Assembly: GCF_055900595.2 (NCBI RefSeq)
Contig: NZ_CM148325.1
Direction: 5' to 3' (one strand)
DNA: 64,000 bases
Of the stretch, positions 13,856 to 22,618 are shown piece after piece; the first letter of the stretch is position 1, and each line of letters opens with the position of its first letter. The translations under genes were made by a program, and so were the position numbers. The notes below the pieces were generated by a model, which searched no databases, was not told the DNA's origin, and saw only the letters and a list, made by a program, of their open reading frames with translations.

Positions 13856-15013
13856 ATGGAGCGCAACGTCACGCTCGATTTTGTTCGCGGCGTCGCCATT
13901 CTGGGGATCCTGCTATTAAACATCAGCGCCTTTGGGTTACCAAAGGCGGCTTATCTCAATCCCGCCTGGTACGGCGCTATTACGCCGCAGGATGCATGGA
14001 CCTGGGCATTACTCGATCTCATCGGTCAGGTGAAATTCCTCACGCTTTTTGCGTTGCTGTTTGGTGCTGGCCTGCAAATGTTGCTACCCCGTGGCAAACG
14101 CTGGATCCAGTCGCGGTTAACACTGTTAGTCTTGTTGGGCTTTATTCACGGTTTATTGTTCTGGGACGGCGATATTCTGTTGGCTTACGGGCTGGTGGGC
14201 TTAATCTGTTGGCGGCTGGTGCGCGATGCGCCATCGGTAAAAAGCCTGTTTAATACCGGCGTCATGCTTTATCTGGTGGGGCTTGGCGTTTTGCTGTTGT
14301 TGGGGTTGATTTCAGACAGTCAGACCAGCCGCGCCTGGACGCCGGATGCATCGGCTATTTTGTATGAAAAATACTGGAAGCTTCATGGCGGCGTTGAAGC
14401 GATCGGTAACCGTGCCGATGGAGTTGGGAACAGTTTACTGGCACTGGGCGCACAGTATGGCTGGCAACTGGCAGGGATGATGCTAATTGGCGCGGCGCTG
14501 ATGCGCAGTGGCTGGCTGAAAGGGCAGTTTAGCTTGCGCCATTATCGGCGTACCGGTTTTGTGCTGGTGGCGATTGGGGTGATCATTAACCTTCCAGCGA
14601 TCGCCCTGCAATGGCGGCTGGACTGGGCATATCGCTGGTGCGCCTTCTTACTTCAGATGCCGCGGGAACTGAGTGCGCCGTTTCAGGCGGTTGGCTATGC
14701 GTCGCTGTTTTATGGTTTCTGGCCGCAATTGAGCCGCTTTAAGCTGGTGCTCGCGATCGCCTGCGTCGGACGGATGGCGCTGACCAACTATCTATTGCAA
14801 ACGCTGATTTGTACCACGCTTTTTTATCACCTCGGTTTGTTTATGCAGTTTGACCGTCTGGAATTGCTGGCGTTTGTTATTCCGGTATGGCTGGCGAATA
14901 TTCTCTTCTCTGTTATCTGGCTGCGTTACTTCCGTCATGGGCCGGTGGAATGGCTCTGGCGTCAGTTAACTTTACGTGCTGCCGGACCTGCATTATCTAA
15001 AACATCAAGATAA
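13856..15013 (+). CDS. yeiB: Inner membrane protein YeiB (DUF418)
   Basis: 385 aa polytopic membrane ORF immediately downstream of folE. Confidence 0.88.
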   Translation: MERNVTLDFVRGVAILGILLLNISAFGLPKAAYLNPAWYGAITPQDAWTWALLDLIGQVKFLTLFALLFGAGLQMLLPRGKRWIQSRLTLLVLLGFIHGLLFWDGDILLAYGLVGLICWRLVRDAPSVKSLFNTGVMLYLVGLGVLLLLGLISDSQTSRAWTPDASAILYEKYWKLHGGVEAIGNRADGVGNSLLALGAQYGWQLAGMMLIGAALMRSGWLKGQFSLRHYRRTGFVLVAIGVIINLPAIALQWRLDWAYRWCAFLLQMPRELSAPFQAVGYASLFYGFWPQLSRFKLVLAIACVGRMALTNYLLQTLICTTLFYHLGLFMQFDRLELLAFVIPVWLANILFSVIWLRYFRHGPVEWLWRQLTLRAAGPALSKTSR

Positions 15014-15154
15014 CGATCTGGATCACATTCATTAACAAAATGGTTGTAACCGTTTCCATTGCTGTGACTCGATTCACGAAGTCCTGAATTCAGTGCTGAC
15101 AAAATAGCCGCCAGCAAGCAGGCATTTACTGCAATCTCATAACAGGTAGTGAAT

Positions 15155-16195
15155 ATGATCACCATTCGTGATGTAGCGCGTCAGGCTGGCGTCTCTGTGG
15201 CAACGGTTTCCCGGGTGCTCAATAACAGCACGCTGGTCAGTGCCGACACGCGTGAAGCAGTAATGAAAGCAGTGAGCGAGCTGGATTATCGGCCAAACGC
15301 CAATGCCCAGGCGCTGGCAACTCAGGTTAGCGATACCATTGGCGTGGTGGTGATGGACGTTTCTGATGCGTTTTTCGGCGCGCTGGTAAAAGCGGTGGAT
15401 CTCGTCGCCCAGCAGCACCAGAAATATGTGCTAATAGGTAATAGCTATCATGAAGCGGAAAAAGAGCGTCATGCCATTGAGGTGTTAATTCGCCAGCGTT
15501 GTAACGCGTTGATTGTTCATTCAAAAGCGTTAAGCGATGATGAATTAGCGCAGTTTATGGATAACATTCCCGGTATGGTGTTAATCAACCGCGTTGTGCC
15601 AGGTTACGCCCATCGTTGCGTTTGCCTGGATAATCTCAGTGGTGCCCGAATGGCCACGCGCATGTTGCTCAATAATGGTCATCAACGTATTGGTTATCTT
15701 TCTTCCAGCCACGGCATTGAAGATGATGCCATGCGCAAAGCAGGCTGGATGAGTGCGTTGAAAGAGCAGGATATTATTCCGTCGGAAAGCTGGATTGGCA
15801 CTGGCACCCCGGACATGCCAGGCGGTGAGGCGGCGATGGTTGAACTGCTGGGGCGCAATCTACACCTTACCGCTGTATTTGCATACAACGACAATATGGC
15901 CGCTGGCGCACTGACGGCATTAAAAGATAATGGTATTGCGATTCCGTTACATCTCTCAATCATCGGTTTCGATGATATTCCCATCGCTCGTTACACCGAC
16001 CCACAATTAACGACCGTGCGTTATCCTATTGCTTCGATGGCAAAATTAGCTACCGAACTGGCCTTACAAGGGGCAGCAGGCAACATTGATCCTCACGCCA
16101 GCCACTGTTTTATGCCGACGTTAGTGCGTCGCCATTCTGTCGCAACGCGCCAGAATGCGGCAGCGATCACTAACTCAACAAATCAGTCGATGTAA
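15155..16195 (+). CDS. galS: LacI/GalR-family repressor GalS (mgl-gal isorepressor)
   Basis: ATG at 15155 gives [24 protein letters not shown] (346 aa); ORF track starts at GTG two codons upstream. Confidence 0.93.
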
Positions 16196-16205
16196 CCGCT
16201 TTCAA
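16190..16205. promoter_or_regulatory. GalR/GalS operator-like site overlapping galS stop codon
   Basis: ATGTAACCGCTTTCAA matches GTGKAANCGNTTNCAC core. Confidence 0.65.
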
Positions 16206-16207
16206 TC

Positions 16208-16223
16208 TGTGAGTGATTTCACA
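16208..16223. promoter_or_regulatory. CRP-binding-site consensus TGTGA-N6-TCACA upstream of mglB
   Basis: TGTGAGTGATTTCACA read directly; mgl operon is CRP-activated. Confidence 0.7.
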
Positions 16224-16474
16224 GTATATTAACAATGCGATAGCTATGATTGCACCGTTCTAACGCTGTAACCTGCATGTAACAGTGAATCATCACTTTC
16301 ACCGAGGTAATAGCGTCATAACAACAATTAAAGCCGTTTTCTGGAGCGTTACCGGGCATGGAAGAACGAATTTTAAAAAGTGAGCTTCGGCGTTCAGTAA
16401 CACTTCATTAACTCTACTGCCCCGCCGAGCATTTATCTCAAGCACTACCCTGCATAAGAAAAACCGGAGATACC

Positions 16475-17473
16475 ATGAATAAGAAGGTGTTAACCCTGTC
16501 TGCTGTAATGGCCAGTATGTTATTCGGTGCCACTGCACACGCTGCTGATACCCGTATTGGTGTAACAATCTATAAGTACGACGATAACTTTATGTCTGTT
16601 GTGCGCAAGGCTATCGAACAAGATGCGAAAGCCGCGCCAGATGTTCAGCTGCTGATGAATGATTCTCAGAATGACCAGTCCAAGCAGAACGATCAGATCG
16701 ACGTATTGCTGGCGAAAGGGGTGAAGGCACTGGCAATCAACCTGGTTGACCCGGCAGCTGCGGGTACGGTGATTGAGAAAGCGCGTGGGCAAAACGTGCC
16801 GGTGGTTTTCTTTAACAAAGAACCGTCTCGTAAGGCGCTGGATAGCTACGATAAAGCCTACTATGTTGGCACTGACTCCAAAGAGTCCGGCATTATTCAG
16901 GGCGATTTGATTGCTAAGCATTGGGCGGCAAACCAGGGTTGGGATCTCAACAAAGACGGTCAGATTCAATTCGTACTGCTGAAAGGTGAACCGGGCCATC
17001 CGGATGCAGAAGCACGCACCACTTACGTGATTAAAGAGCTGAACGACAAAGGCATCAAAACTGAACAGTTACAGTTAGATACCGCTATGTGGGATACCGC
17101 TCAGGCGAAAGATAAGATGGACGCCTGGCTGTCTGGCCCGAACGCCAACAAAATCGAAGTGGTTATCGCCAACAACGATGCGATGGCAATGGGCGCAGTA
17201 GAAGCACTGAAAGCACACAACAAGTCCAGCATTCCAGTGTTTGGTGTCGATGCGCTGCCAGAAGCTCTGGCACTGGTGAAATCCGGTGCACTGGCGGGCA
17301 CCGTATTGAACGACGCTAACAACCAGGCGAAAGCGACTTTTGATCTGGCGAAAAACCTGGCCGATGGCAAAGGTGCGGCTGATGGTACCAACTGGAAAAT
17401 CGACAACAAAGTGGTCCGCGTACCTTACGTTGGCGTAGATAAAGACAACCTGGCTGAATTCAGCAAGAAATAA
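16475..17473 (+). CDS. mglB: Galactose/glucose ABC transporter periplasmic binding protein
   Basis: 332 aa with signal peptide [23 protein letters not shown]. Confidence 0.95.
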
Positions 17474-17481
17474 GACTGATT

Positions 17482-17510
17482 GGGCGCAGTCATTTACTGC
17501 GCCCTTATTG
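17482..17510 (+). terminator. Intra-operon hairpin between mglB and mglA (partial terminator/attenuator)
   Basis: GGGCGCAGT-CATTT-ACTGCGCCC followed by TTATTG. Confidence 0.6.
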
Positions 17511-17533
17511 TATGGCCAACAAGGTAAAATTAT

Positions 17534-19054
17534 ATGGTCAGCTCAACGACTCCGTCTTCCGGGGAATACTTGTTGGAAATGAGCGGTATCAACAAGTCTT
17601 TTCCGGGTGTTAAGGCACTTGATAACGTTAATTTAAAAGTCCGGCCACATTCTATCCATGCATTAATGGGGGAAAACGGCGCAGGAAAATCAACATTATT
17701 AAAATGCCTGTTTGGTATTTATCAAAAAGACTCCGGCACCATTTTGTTCCAGGGTAAAGAGATCGATTTTCATTCTGCCAAAGAAGCACTGGAAAATGGT
17801 ATTTCGATGGTACACCAGGAATTAAACCTGGTATTACAACGTTCGGTGATGGACAACATGTGGCTGGGGCGATATCCCACCAAAGGCATGTTTGTCGATC
17901 AGGACAAAATGTACCGCGAAACCAAAGCGATTTTTGATGAGCTGGATATTGATATCGATCCGCGTGCGCGCGTCGGCACATTATCCGTTTCGCAAATGCA
18001 GATGATCGAAATCGCCAAAGCGTTTTCCTATAACGCGAAAATTGTGATTATGGATGAACCGACATCTTCGTTAACTGAAAAAGAGGTCAATCATCTTTTC
18101 ACTATTATTCGTAAATTAAAAGAGCGCGGTTGCGGTATTGTTTATATCTCGCATAAAATGGAAGAAATCTTCCAGTTATGTGATGAAGTCACCGTATTGC
18201 GCGACGGTCAGTGGATCGCTACCGAACCGCTGGCAGGGCTAACGATGGACAAGATCATCGCCATGATGGTTGGACGCTCTCTTAACCAGCGTTTCCCTGA
18301 CAAAGAAAACAAGCCGGGCGAAGTGATTCTGGAAGTGCGTAATCTGACGTCGCTGCGCCAGCCGTCGATTCGCGATGTCTCGTTTGATCTGCATAAAGGG
18401 GAGATCCTCGGTATTGCCGGTCTGGTGGGGGCGAAACGTACCGATATTGTTGAGACGTTATTTGGTATTCGCGAGAAATCGGCTGGCACCATTACGTTGC
18501 ACGGTAAAAAGATCAATAACCATAACGCTAACGAAGCCATAAACCACGGATTTGCACTGGTAACTGAAGAGCGCCGCTCAACGGGAATTTATGCCTATCT
18601 GGATATTGGCTTTAACTCGTTAATTTCCAATATCCGCAACTACAAAAATAAAGTTGGCTTGCTGGATAACTCGCGGATGAAAAGCGATACCCAGTGGGTA
18701 ATTGATTCGATGCGGGTAAAAACGCCGGGACATCGTACGCAAATTGGTTCACTCTCCGGCGGTAATCAGCAAAAGGTAATTATTGGGCGCTGGCTGCTTA
18801 CGCAACCAGAAATATTAATGCTCGATGAACCAACGCGCGGTATTGATGTCGGAGCGAAGTTTGAAATTTATCAGTTAATTGCCGAACTGGCGAAGAAAGG
18901 CAAGGGGATTATTATTATTTCCTCCGAAATGCCAGAGTTGTTAGGGATAACAGACCGTATTCTGGTCATGAGCAATGGTCTCGTTTCCGGAATTGTCGAT
19001 ACAAAAACAACAACGCAAAACGAAATTCTGCGTCTTGCGTCTTTGCACCTTTAA
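17534..19054 (+). CDS. mglA: Galactose/methyl-galactoside ABC transporter ATP-binding protein (tandem ABC domains)
   Basis: 506 aa; Walker [10 protein letters not shown] and second ABC domain. Confidence 0.95.
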
Positions 19055-19069
19055 GATTAGGGGCCTCCC

Positions 19070-20080
19070 ATGAGTGCGTTAAATAAGAAAAGTTTTCTTA
19101 CTTACCTGAAAGAGGGCGGTATTTACGTCGTTCTTTTAGTTTTGCTGGCGATTATTATTTTCCAGGACCCAACTTTTTTAAGTCTGTTGAACTTAAGTAA
19201 TATTCTCACCCAGTCATCGGTGCGTATTATTATCGCGCTTGGTGTGGCAGGATTAATTGTCACCCAGGGGACCGACCTTTCTGCGGGACGTCAGGTAGGG
19301 CTGGCAGCCGTGGTGGCAGCGACGTTATTGCAGTCCATGGATAACGCTAACAAAGTATTCCCGGAAATGGCGACGATGCCGATTGCGCTGGTAATTCTGA
19401 TTGTCTGTGCCATTGGCGCGGTGATCGGTTTGATCAACGGCCTGATTATCGCTTATCTCAACGTGACGCCATTCATTACCACGCTCGGCACGATGATTAT
19501 CGTCTACGGCATCAACTCGCTCTATTACGACTTTGTCGGGGCGTCGCCAATTTCTGGTTTTGACAGTGGTTTCTCTACCTTTGCTCAGGGCTTTGTTGCG
19601 CTGGGGAGCTTCCGTCTCTCTTACATCACTTTCTACGCGTTGATTGCGGTGGCATTCGTCTGGGTGTTGTGGAACAAAACCCGTTTCGGTAAGAACATTT
19701 TTGCCATTGGCGGTAACCCGGAAGCGGCGAAAGTTTCTGGTGTCAACGTTGGCCTGAACCTGCTGATGATCTACGCGTTGTCTGGTGTGTTCTATGCCTT
19801 TGGCGGGATGTTAGAAGCCGGCCGTATCGGCTCTGCCACCAACAACCTCGGCTTTATGTATGAGCTGGATGCTATCGCAGCGTGTGTGGTGGGCGGTGTA
19901 TCGTTCAGCGGTGGTGTAGGGACGGTGATTGGTGTGGTGACCGGGGTAATTATCTTTACCGTCATCAACTATGGCCTGACGTATATCGGCGTAAACCCAT
20001 ACTGGCAGTACATCATCAAAGGGGCGATTATTATCTTCGCCGTAGCGCTGGATTCACTGAAATACGCGCGTAAGAAATGA
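19070..20080 (+). CDS. mglC: Galactose ABC transporter permease
   Basis: 336 aa polytopic membrane ORF following mglA. Confidence 0.93.
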   Translation: MSALNKKSFLTYLKEGGIYVVLLVLLAIIIFQDPTFLSLLNLSNILTQSSVRIIIALGVAGLIVTQGTDLSAGRQVGLAAVVAATLLQSMDNANKVFPEMATMPIALVILIVCAIGAVIGLINGLIIAYLNVTPFITTLGTMIIVYGINSLYYDFVGASPISGFDSGFSTFAQGFVALGSFRLSYITFYALIAVAFVWVLWNKTRFGKNIFAIGGNPEAAKVSGVNVGLNLLMIYALSGVFYAFGGMLEAGRIGSATNNLGFMYELDAIAACVVGGVSFSGGVGTVIGVVTGVIIFTVINYGLTYIGVNPYWQYIIKGAIIIFAVALDSLKYARKK

Positions 20081-20092
20081 TGTGAATGTGGG

Positions 20093-20140
20093 TATTGCCG
20101 GATGCGCCGCATCCGGCAATCGGTGCCAAATGCCGGATGC
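20093..20140. repeat. REP-like palindromic element downstream of mglC
   Basis: GCCGGATGCGCCGCATCCGGCAA ... GCCGGATGCG motifs. Confidence 0.7.
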
Positions 20141-20150
20141 GTCTCTGATT

Positions 20151-21386
20151 TTACAACGTTACCGGGTGTTCTTTCTCTCCCTTCTTAAACTTCACTTCCC
20201 CGAGATCAATACAACCAACCGGGCAAACATGACCACAAAGCAGACAACCCACGCACTTCTCGGTATTACAATGCGGTGTGCGCGTTTTCTCGCTCCATTC
20301 CATCGCCTGGTGACCGCCGTCGTAACAGGAAATATAACAGCGTCCACAGCCAACACATTTATCGAGATTGATATGGGGATAGACGATATAGCTACGGTCT
20401 AAATCTTCCGCCGGGACAATATTGTGATTCGCCAGACCTACCATCTCCTGCAACGAATCAAATCCCTGATCGGCGAGATAATGCGATAACCCGCTCGCCA
20501 TATCTTCCACTATCCGATACCCGTACTGCATAATGCCGGTGGTCACCTGTAACGTTGCTGCGCCGAGCAATAAAAACTCCGCAGCATCTTCCCAGGTTTC
20601 AATACCGCCGATACCGCTGATCGGGAAATCGCGCAGCTCTGGATGGGTGCGCATTTGCTGAATAAAGCGTAGGGCGATCGGTTTTACCGCTTTACCGGAA
20701 TATCCGGAAATACTCGATTTACCGTTAACGATCGGCATACCAATTTTCTGATTAAGATCGATATTGGTAATGGATTTAACGGTGTTAATCGCCGCAATGC
20801 CATCTGCGCCGCCGCGTTTTGCCGCCAGCGCCACTTCGCACATATCACCGATATTTGGCGTCATCTTCGCCAGCATCGGCAGCTTAGAACCGCGTTTCAC
20901 CGCCCGACAATATTTTTCTACCAGTTCCGGGCTTTGCCCGACATCACTACCCATCGCATGAGAAGTCATTTGCGGACAGGAGAAGTTACACTCGATCATA
21001 TCGGCGCCAGCTTCTTGCACTAGCCGCGCCAGATCCTCCCACTGCTGTTCATTTTCGCCCATGATCGAAGCTATCAATACTTTGTCCGGATAATCTTCTT
21101 TCAGCCGACGCAGGGCGGCCAGATTCTCCTCCAGAGGATGTTCGGCAATCTGCTCCATATTTTTGAAGCCGATAAAACCGGTATCTTCTTTCACCAGATG
21201 ATCAAAACGTGGTGAGACTTCGTTGGCGATAAAAAAGCCGATCGTTTTAAATACCACGCCACCCCAGCCCGTGTCGTAGGCTTTGGCGCACATCTCATAG
21301 CAGTTGCCTACCGGCGAAGAAGAGAGGCAGAACGGGTTGGGAAACTTCACGCCGCAAAAGGTAATCGAAAGATCTTTCGTTAACAT
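20151..21386 (-). CDS. preA: NAD-dependent dihydropyrimidine dehydrogenase subunit PreA
   Basis: [26 protein letters not shown]...; C-terminal 4Fe-4S cysteine clusters; start taken at second Met of ORF. Confidence 0.9.
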
Positions 21387-22618
21387 GAGCAAGCTCCCTC
21401 TAAATAGTGATGAATCGCCTCGGCGGCTTCTTTCCCGGTTTTCACGGCATAAACCACGGTTTTGTCACCCTCAACAATATCGCCAGCAGCAAAGACTTGC
21501 GGGTCGCGGGTCTGGTAATTTTGTGTTTTGATGGTGTTACGCTGCGGCTCTAACTCCGCAAAGGCATCCAGTCTGGCATGCTGACCGACGGCGAGAATAA
21601 TTTTATCTGCCGCCATCGTCAGTTCGCCCGGTAAGCGTACATGCTTAAACGTGACTTTATTGCCTTCCACGGCCACTGGTGTGAATCCATCGATGATCGA
21701 AACGCCCAACTCCCGGGCGCTGGCAAACTCTTTTTCGCTTGCCGGAAACTCATCTAACTCTTCACGTGCTACGCAGGTTACCGCCTGACAGCCGAGAACT
21801 TTCAGCGTGCTGGCAACGTCCATCGCGACATCACCGCCGCCGATAATTAATGCGCTTTGTGGAATGCTGATATCGCCCTGCGCCTGCCGTGCACGTTGCA
21901 AGAAGTCGACGGCAATCTCAACGTCGCTATGCTCAAACAGCGGTAGCCCGGAACCGCCCGACAACCCTACGGTGACAAGTACTGCGCGGTTTTCCGCTTT
22001 CAGTTGCTCCAGGGTGAGTACTTTACCGATTTCGTTATTGCACTTAATGGTCACCCCCATTTTTTCGATACGGGCGATCTCTGCATCCAGCACGGTTTGC
22101 GGCAAACGAAATTGCGGAATACCGTTACACAGCCAGCCACCGGGTTGCGCTTCTTTTTCATAAATAGTGACGTCGTACCCCATATTTGTCAGCGTCACGC
22201 TGGCCTGCAATCCAGCAGGACCTGCGCCAATAATGGCGACTTTGCCGAGCGTTTTAGTACCAGGCTGATAAATTTCCATCCCGGTTTGTTGTTCAAAATC
22301 AGTGATAAAACGCTGTAAGCGACCGATATCAATGGGATCATCAACACCGGCACGGGTACAACCGCTTTGACATAATTTCTCCGTCGGGCACACTCTGGCA
22401 CAAACGGCACCGAGGGCATTATTTTCGCGAATTGTCTCGGCAGCGCCTTTAAAATTACGAAAGTAGATTGAGCGTATAAATTTCCCCGGATCGGTTTGTG
22501 CCGGGCAAGCCTGACTACAGGGCGCGTCGTGACATAATAAACAGCGAGAGGCTTCTTTAATCGCCAGTAAAGGCGTAAAAGCCGGAGTGAGTTCATCCAG
22601 ATAATTTTGTTGCGGCAT
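21380..22618 (-). CDS. preT: Dihydropyrimidine dehydrogenase subunit PreT
   Basis: 412 aa [14 protein letters not shown]...; FAD/NAD Rossmann GAGPAG; overlaps preA start (coupling). Confidence 0.9.

Follow-up and report, generated by a model that had tools for sequence, protein, structure and literature searches.

The window analysed here is a 64-kb stretch of Escherichia coli DNA that carries the mgl operon. Its source was assigned with a 401-nt query around the hairpin described below, which was matched in 5,425 of 5,426 complete E. coli genomes; this segment is 100% identical to that of E. coli strain Z0117EC0005. Genes were assigned with NCBIfam models and are listed, together with the features of the mglB-mglA spacer, in Table 1. 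The stop codon of mglB ends at 17473 and the ATG of mglA lies at 17534, leaving a spacer of 60 nt (17474-17533). From stop codon to start codon the order is TAA-GACTGATT-GGGCGCAGT-CATTT-ACTGCGCCC-TTATTGTATGGCCAACAAGGTAAAATTAT-ATG. A promoter scan of this spacer found no sigma-70-like promoter for independent transcription of mglA.

Table 1. Genes and RNA features at the mgl locus (positions in the window)
Feature	Position	Strand	Remarks
yeiB	13856-15013	+	NCBIfam equivalog model, far above cut-off
galS	15149-16195	+	NCBIfam equivalog model, far above cut-off
mglB, periplasmic galactose/glucose-binding protein	16475-17473	+	NCBIfam NF011924 equivalog, 660 bits vs cut-off 420
Hairpin 5' arm GGGCGCAGT	17482-17490	+	begins 8 nt past the mglB stop codon
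Hairpin loop CATTT	17491-17495	+	polymorphic within E. coli: CGTTT, CTATT, CATTT
Hairpin 3' arm ACTGCGCCC	17496-17504	+	100% complementary to the 5' arm
Weak U-tract TTATTGTAT	17505-17513	+	17509 is the equivalent of the K-12 mglB mRNA 3' end
mglA Shine-Dalgarno AAGGT	17521-17525	+	8 nt upstream of the ATG
mglA, ATP-binding subunit	17534-19054	+	NCBIfam NF008215, 1082 bits
mglC, permease subunit, last gene of the operon	19070-20080	+	NCBIfam NF007014, 641 bits
preA, convergent to mglC	20151-21392	-	NCBIfam equivalog model, far above cut-off

The initial annotation had described a hairpin with a CATTT loop in the 60 bp between mglB and mglA, and its coordinates, its complementary 9-bp arms and its folding were all confirmed. 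The stem consists of 9 perfect pairs, 7 of them G-C, and is closed by a 5-nt loop, which fits the GC-rich stem-loop of an intrinsic terminator (∼5-14 bp, loop of 3-8 nt). The hairpin by itself folds with -16.5 kcal/mol. Within an 81-nt context the energy is -24.4 kcal/mol (z = -3.17 against 200 shuffles), and in a 181-nt context the ensemble pairing of the stem nucleotides is ∼99%. In a scan of 8 kb (14-22 kb of the window) the hairpin ranked first among terminator-like matches and was accepted under permissive terminator criteria. The sequence 3' of the stem is TTATTGTATGG. A T-rich tail had also been described; the tail UUAUUGUA is indeed enriched in T, with 5 U in its first 8 nt, but only modestly so, the longest run being 2.

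Hairpins of this kind (perfect stem of at least 9 bp, at least 7 GC pairs, loop of 3-8 nt) were counted in the 64-kb window. Five were found, whereas 100 dinucleotide shuffles averaged 0.15, making them ∼30 times commoner than in shuffled sequence. From the shuffle mean of 0.15 per window, the chance of such a hairpin in any given 60-nt spacer is therefore of the order of 1e-4. Of the three matches to the motif GGGCGY..RCGCCC in the window, only the one in the hairpin continues into this stem. Membership of the mglB hairpin in a repeat family was considered and rejected on these motif and hairpin counts. Assignment to the REP/BIME elements was likewise rejected: the hairpin is unlike the REP-type hairpin at 20097-20117, and an Rfam scan of 16000-20500 with E-values up to 10 returned nothing matching it.

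The REP-type hairpin is a perfect 9-bp stem-loop, GCCGGATGC-GCC-GCATCCGGC, located directly 3' of mglC, between the convergent genes mglC and preA. It is overlapped by a weak Rfam match to naRNA4 (18 bits, E = 7). Given its position, the mgl operon appears to end at a REP element and not at a canonical terminator. Two further RNA ends at the locus are known from published Term-seq data (PMC7815308). An abundant orphan 3' end lies at ∼16325 (K-12 2240498) in the galS-mglB spacer, 150 nt upstream of the mglB start. An internal 3' end at ∼19563 in mglC (K-12 2237260) belongs to a putative ORF-internal sRNA, 'mglC int', which has been reported in chimeras with ArcZ.

Orthologous loci were collected by an MglB scan with one genome per species, from which the best 80 of at least 595 loci were used (all Enterobacteriaceae, 92-100% protein identity). 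Together with the window this gave 81 loci, and a GGGCGY...RCGCCC hairpin was present in 73 of them. It starts 6-24 nt past the mglB stop codon, except at two Citrobacter loci where an insertion places it at 137 nt. When the most stable hairpin of each spacer was sought without any motif, most loci yielded the same structure. The sequence flanking the hairpin is unalignable between genera on both sides.

In a MAFFT alignment of 52 distinct orthologous sequences, 99.3% of cells were paired, and in 5 of the 9 pairs both partners had changed; 41 cells were affected, where shuffles gave 11.6. Covariation scored 0.256, against 0.102 in shuffles, none of 500 reaching the observed value, and at most 0.07 in slid-partner controls. 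Because loci were selected by a motif that already imposes five of the nine pairs (columns 7-11 with 25-29), only the remaining four are free tests. The lower five pairs of the stem are invariant, including the G-C pairs adjoining the tail, and the upper pairs covary. Pair 6 is found as C-G, U-A or U-G, pair 7 as A-U, G-C or G-U, and pair 8 as A-U, C-G, U-A or G-C. Pair 8 also varies inside the genus Escherichia: E. coli has G-C, whereas E. albertii and another Escherichia lineage have A-U, with flanks that are otherwise near-identical. The hairpin thus carries the compensatory changes of a conserved structured RNA.

Among E. coli the stem was identical in all eight sequences examined, and the loop has three alleles. 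Exact matches to the 60-nt spacer were counted by loop among the 5,426 complete E. coli genomes: CGTTT accounted for 2,646 and the K-12 type CTATT for 1,515. The CATTT allele of the window is rare, with only 12 genomes matching the 60-nt spacer exactly. Judged from these comparisons, the hairpin is under selection, with compensatory changes in the upper stem and drift in the loop and flanks.

Several loci carry additional elements at this position. The two Citrobacter spp. loci mentioned above contain, 1-137 nt past the mglB stop codon and ahead of the hairpin, a ∼125-nt palindromic insert with a CCCCAG...CTGGGG core, which we take to resemble an ERIC element. In three loci (Raoultella spp. 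and 'Enterobacter sp. 10-1') the arms CGGGCG ... CGCCCG ATTATTCC are split by a structured insertion of 70-170 nt, within the first 180-250 nt past the mglB stop codon; the same arms enclose a 5-nt loop in Klebsiella. It looks as if a small element has landed in the hairpin loop. Salmonella arizonae has additional sequence between the hairpin and mglA, presumably REP-like. In E. coli strain E66 (NZ_CM173951.1; locus L087, 2531-4372) an IS1 lies directly after the mglB stop codon in place of the hairpin, and mglA is reduced to fragments between two IS1 copies. By its gene content E66 is a natural mglAC-null strain retaining mglB.

The U-tract is far more variable than the stem. At the E. coli site the TransTermHP-type tail score was 2.87 and the d'Aubenton-Carafa-type score +4.5. 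Both are positive by a small margin, as for a weak terminator. Across distinct sequences the frequency of T was 0.55-0.67 at positions +1 to +4 past the stem (0.62-0.67 at +1 to +3). This enrichment, together with the invariant G-C pairs beside the tail, is as expected if termination is selected. The d'Aubenton-Carafa-type score, calculated with modern energy parameters in place of the original ones, was positive in only 15 of 55 distinct orthologues. The hairpin is kept without a U-tract in Salmonella arizonae (TGAAACTG), E. albertii (AAATTG), Kluyvera and Buttiauxella. In five loci, from Pluralibacter, a Citrobacter sp., Trabulsiella and Cedecea sulfonylureivorans, the usual hairpin is replaced or accompanied by an unrelated GC-rich one (for example TCCCGTGCTGGATGGTCAGCACGGGA); these hairpins have no U-tail and are followed by A- or C-rich sequence. 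Their presence suggests that the structure turns over while its function is kept. Since the U-tract is missing or the hairpin replaced in several genera, the feature conserved across the family is a stem-loop and not a canonical terminator. The core conserved function would then be that of a stem-loop that both forms and protects the 3' end, with a U-tract that varies between genera.

The spacer of E. coli K-12 MG1655 differs from that of the window only in the loop (CTATT for CATTT), the stem and tail being identical, and published K-12 data were therefore mapped onto the window. Term-seq of MG1655 lists a 'primary', dominant mglB 3' end at 2239314(-) (Adams et al., 2021; PMC7815308, Supplementary file 1). 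It is listed twice (147,960 and 77,439 reads on average), and file position together with the list of conditions indicates that these are the two LB conditions. For the third growth condition, M63 glucose (again assigned by file position), there is no listing of this end; mgl would be catabolite-repressed in this medium. On the K-12 sequence the end maps to ...GCGCCCUUAUU, the fifth nucleotide past the stem, equivalent to 17509. The RNA end observed in vivo thus falls inside the U-tract, as at an intrinsic terminator. It also sits at the base of the stable stem-loop with which the more abundant cistron ends, as for a protective stem-loop. Mapping of 3' ends had been proposed in the initial annotation as a check on its reading of the hairpin as a partial terminator or stabiliser. 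The outcome is positive, and with the conservation of the hairpin through compensatory changes it supports that reading. Supplementary file 3 of Adams et al. has no entry for the mglB 3' end, which hence carries no published intrinsic-terminator score (PMC7815308).

Supplementary file 3 also provides DirectRNA-seq reads in 800-nt windows (PMC7815308). A window covering mostly the body of mglB contained 192 reads without bicyclomycin and 421 with it, and a window inside mglA contained 126 and 288, giving mglA/mglB ratios of 0.66 and 0.68. These values suggest a drop in RNA from mglB to mglA of ∼1.5-fold, a rough figure given the small counts and the placement of the windows, whose edges do not coincide with the hairpin.

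In the reading that we favour, with moderate confidence, the E. coli hairpin acts as a leaky Rho-independent terminator and at the same time caps the mglB mRNA against exonucleases. Once RNA polymerase had transcribed mglB, the 9-bp GC-rich stem would form beside the imperfect U-tract UUAUUGUAU. Some polymerases would stop there and release an RNA of mglB alone, with its end ∼5 nt past the stem, and the remainder would read through into mglA and mglC, this being the only route by which mglA is reached. The stem-loop would also stop 3'-to-5' exonucleases, so that both terminated transcripts and read-through transcripts cut downstream would accumulate as stable mglB message. Together with the weaker ribosome-binding site of mglA, the hairpin would yield more binding protein than membrane transporter. 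We infer termination, not trimming, as the origin of the 3' end, and likewise the consequence of the hairpin for protein stoichiometry; a termination site and a trimmed end are indistinguishable by Term-seq (Dar and Sorek, 2018; PMC6061677).

The main rival, possible though distinctly less probable, is that the hairpin is a purely post-transcriptional stabiliser. Polymerase would pass the site, the mglBAC RNA would be cut downstream by an endonuclease or end further on, and exonucleases would trim it 3' to 5' as far as the hairpin, leaving a long-lived mglB fragment while the mglAC RNA decays, as for malE in malEFG. The stem-loop is kept in genera without the U-tract and is replaced elsewhere by unrelated stable hairpins lacking U-tails, which speaks for a stabiliser. 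So does the small drop in RNA beside a very large Term-seq peak, as would fit a stable end that accumulates. Stable stem-loops free of U-tracts are known to set precise 3' ends by blocking PNPase and RNase II (PMC6061677), and in malEFG and other E. coli ABC operons differential decay favours the substrate-binding cistron (PMC5927463). Against this, U is enriched directly past the stem in about two thirds of the distinct sequences and the tail-side G-C pairs are invariant, and a mere exonuclease block needs neither; the acceptance of the E. coli site under permissive terminator criteria also argues for termination. The leaky terminator with a cap is retained as the preferred reading for E. coli.

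Three further readings were weighed. The mglB 3' end might be secondary to Rho, with termination inside a poorly translated mglA and trimming back to the hairpin, which we consider very improbable. Rho-dependent transcripts do end at protective stem-loops (according to a paper citing Peters et al.), and the weak Shine-Dalgarno sequence of mglA would favour such a course. However, the Rho-termination regions of Adams et al. contain no entries for mglB or mglA, and a 3' end internal to mglA is marked 'No' there, with a Rho score of 0.91 (PMC7815308). A C-rich, G-poor stretch of the rut type (C>G bubble) was not found in the first ∼400 nt of mglA. The mglA/mglB ratio is the same with and without bicyclomycin, so the drop into mglA is Rho-independent; the ratio and the missing Rho-termination entry are indirect evidence that the mglB 3' end itself is independent of Rho. 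It is also improbable, though less so, that the hairpin is a translation-sensing attenuator. Coupled ribosomes on well-translated mglB would suppress the hairpin and let polymerase into mglAC; blocked translation would allow the hairpin to form and cut off the transporter genes. In Escherichia the stem begins only 8 nt past the mglB stop codon, which would place its first bases under a terminating ribosome. If such an attenuator operated, sRNA control of mglB (for example by Spot 42/Hfq at the 5' UTR) would extend to the whole operon. The least probable of the readings is that the hairpin mainly controls translation of mglA, for instance by structuring the read-through mRNA near the mglA start. 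The 81-nt fold lengthens the stem through pairing of GACUGAUU, just past the stop codon, with mglA codons 1-4, and an 8-bp complement of the Shine-Dalgarno region lies within codons 12-15. Yet the hairpin ends 29 nt upstream of the ATG and does not sequester the Shine-Dalgarno sequence (unpaired probability 0.72), the outer-pairing sequences are entirely different between genera, and an 8-bp match within 60 nt is estimated to occur ∼0.4 times by chance in a 400-nt region.

The Shine-Dalgarno sequence of mglA forms a weaker duplex with the anti-Shine-Dalgarno (-3.9 kcal/mol) than that of mglB (-6.6 kcal/mol), so that translation is likely to add to the protein ratio in its own right, apart from the hairpin. 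The complement noted above is formed by CCAACAAG (17516-17523), which overlaps the mglA Shine-Dalgarno region, and CTTGTTGG (17569-17576), and is perfect. The segment at codons 12-15 could instead pair with CAACAAG at 17590-17596 (17559-17575 with 17590-17606). The Shine-Dalgarno-side sequence is unconserved beyond the Escherichia/Citrobacter/Salmonella group. The alternative pairing at the mglA start could be a translation switch or mere chance.

A literature search returned indirect material only and no direct description of the mglB-mglA hairpin. An abundant mglB-only transcript was reportedly described by Hogg and co-workers with the mgl operon sequence (Mol Gen Genet, 1991). Binding protein in excess of transporter is the textbook design of ABC importers. 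The element is of an ordinary, documented kind, and its 3' end is already present in a published table. The site marks where the major mglB transcript ends and illustrates cleanly, and with good conservation, how an ABC operon would make excess binding protein; beyond annotation its significance is small. The comparative data add the modest point that the hairpin is conserved or replaced by an equivalent and the U-tract comes and goes. With the hairpin constant and the U-tract variable across the Enterobacteriaceae, protection of the RNA end may be the constant function and termination a lineage-specific addition.

Three known systems were compared with the mglB hairpin. Protective 3' stem-loops of Rho-dependent transcripts have a precise steady-state 3' end directly past a stable stem-loop (Dar and Sorek, 2018; PMC6061677), and the mglB hairpin shares this immediately downstream end. 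Such stem-loops are described as having no U-rich tail and a rut just downstream, whereas mglB has a moderately U-rich tail, no rut-like region and no Rho call. The REP stem-loops between malE and malF are elements of differential decay (Newbury et al., 1987, as summarised in Dar and Sorek, 2018; PMC5927463). The likeness lies in a 3' structure that shields the binding-protein cistron from 3'-to-5' decay, such that its mRNA outlasts that of the membrane components. In contrast to malE-malF, the mglB hairpin is not a REP element, and it carries a partial U-tract, which REPs do not.

Internal intrinsic terminators after ABC binding-protein genes have been found experimentally to set transporter stoichiometry in Ruminiclostridium cellulolyticum (Wu et al., 2022; PMC9045158). 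The systems differ in that R. cellulolyticum belongs to the Gram-positive Clostridia and its termination efficiencies were measured, and in that the U-tract of the mglB hairpin is absent altogether in several enterobacterial genera. Common to both is the gene order, with the binding-protein gene at the front, and behind it a GC-rich stem-loop whose tail is poorer in U than the canonical one. The two systems would also share partial read-through into the translocator genes and an effect of the hairpin on the stability of the upstream transcript.
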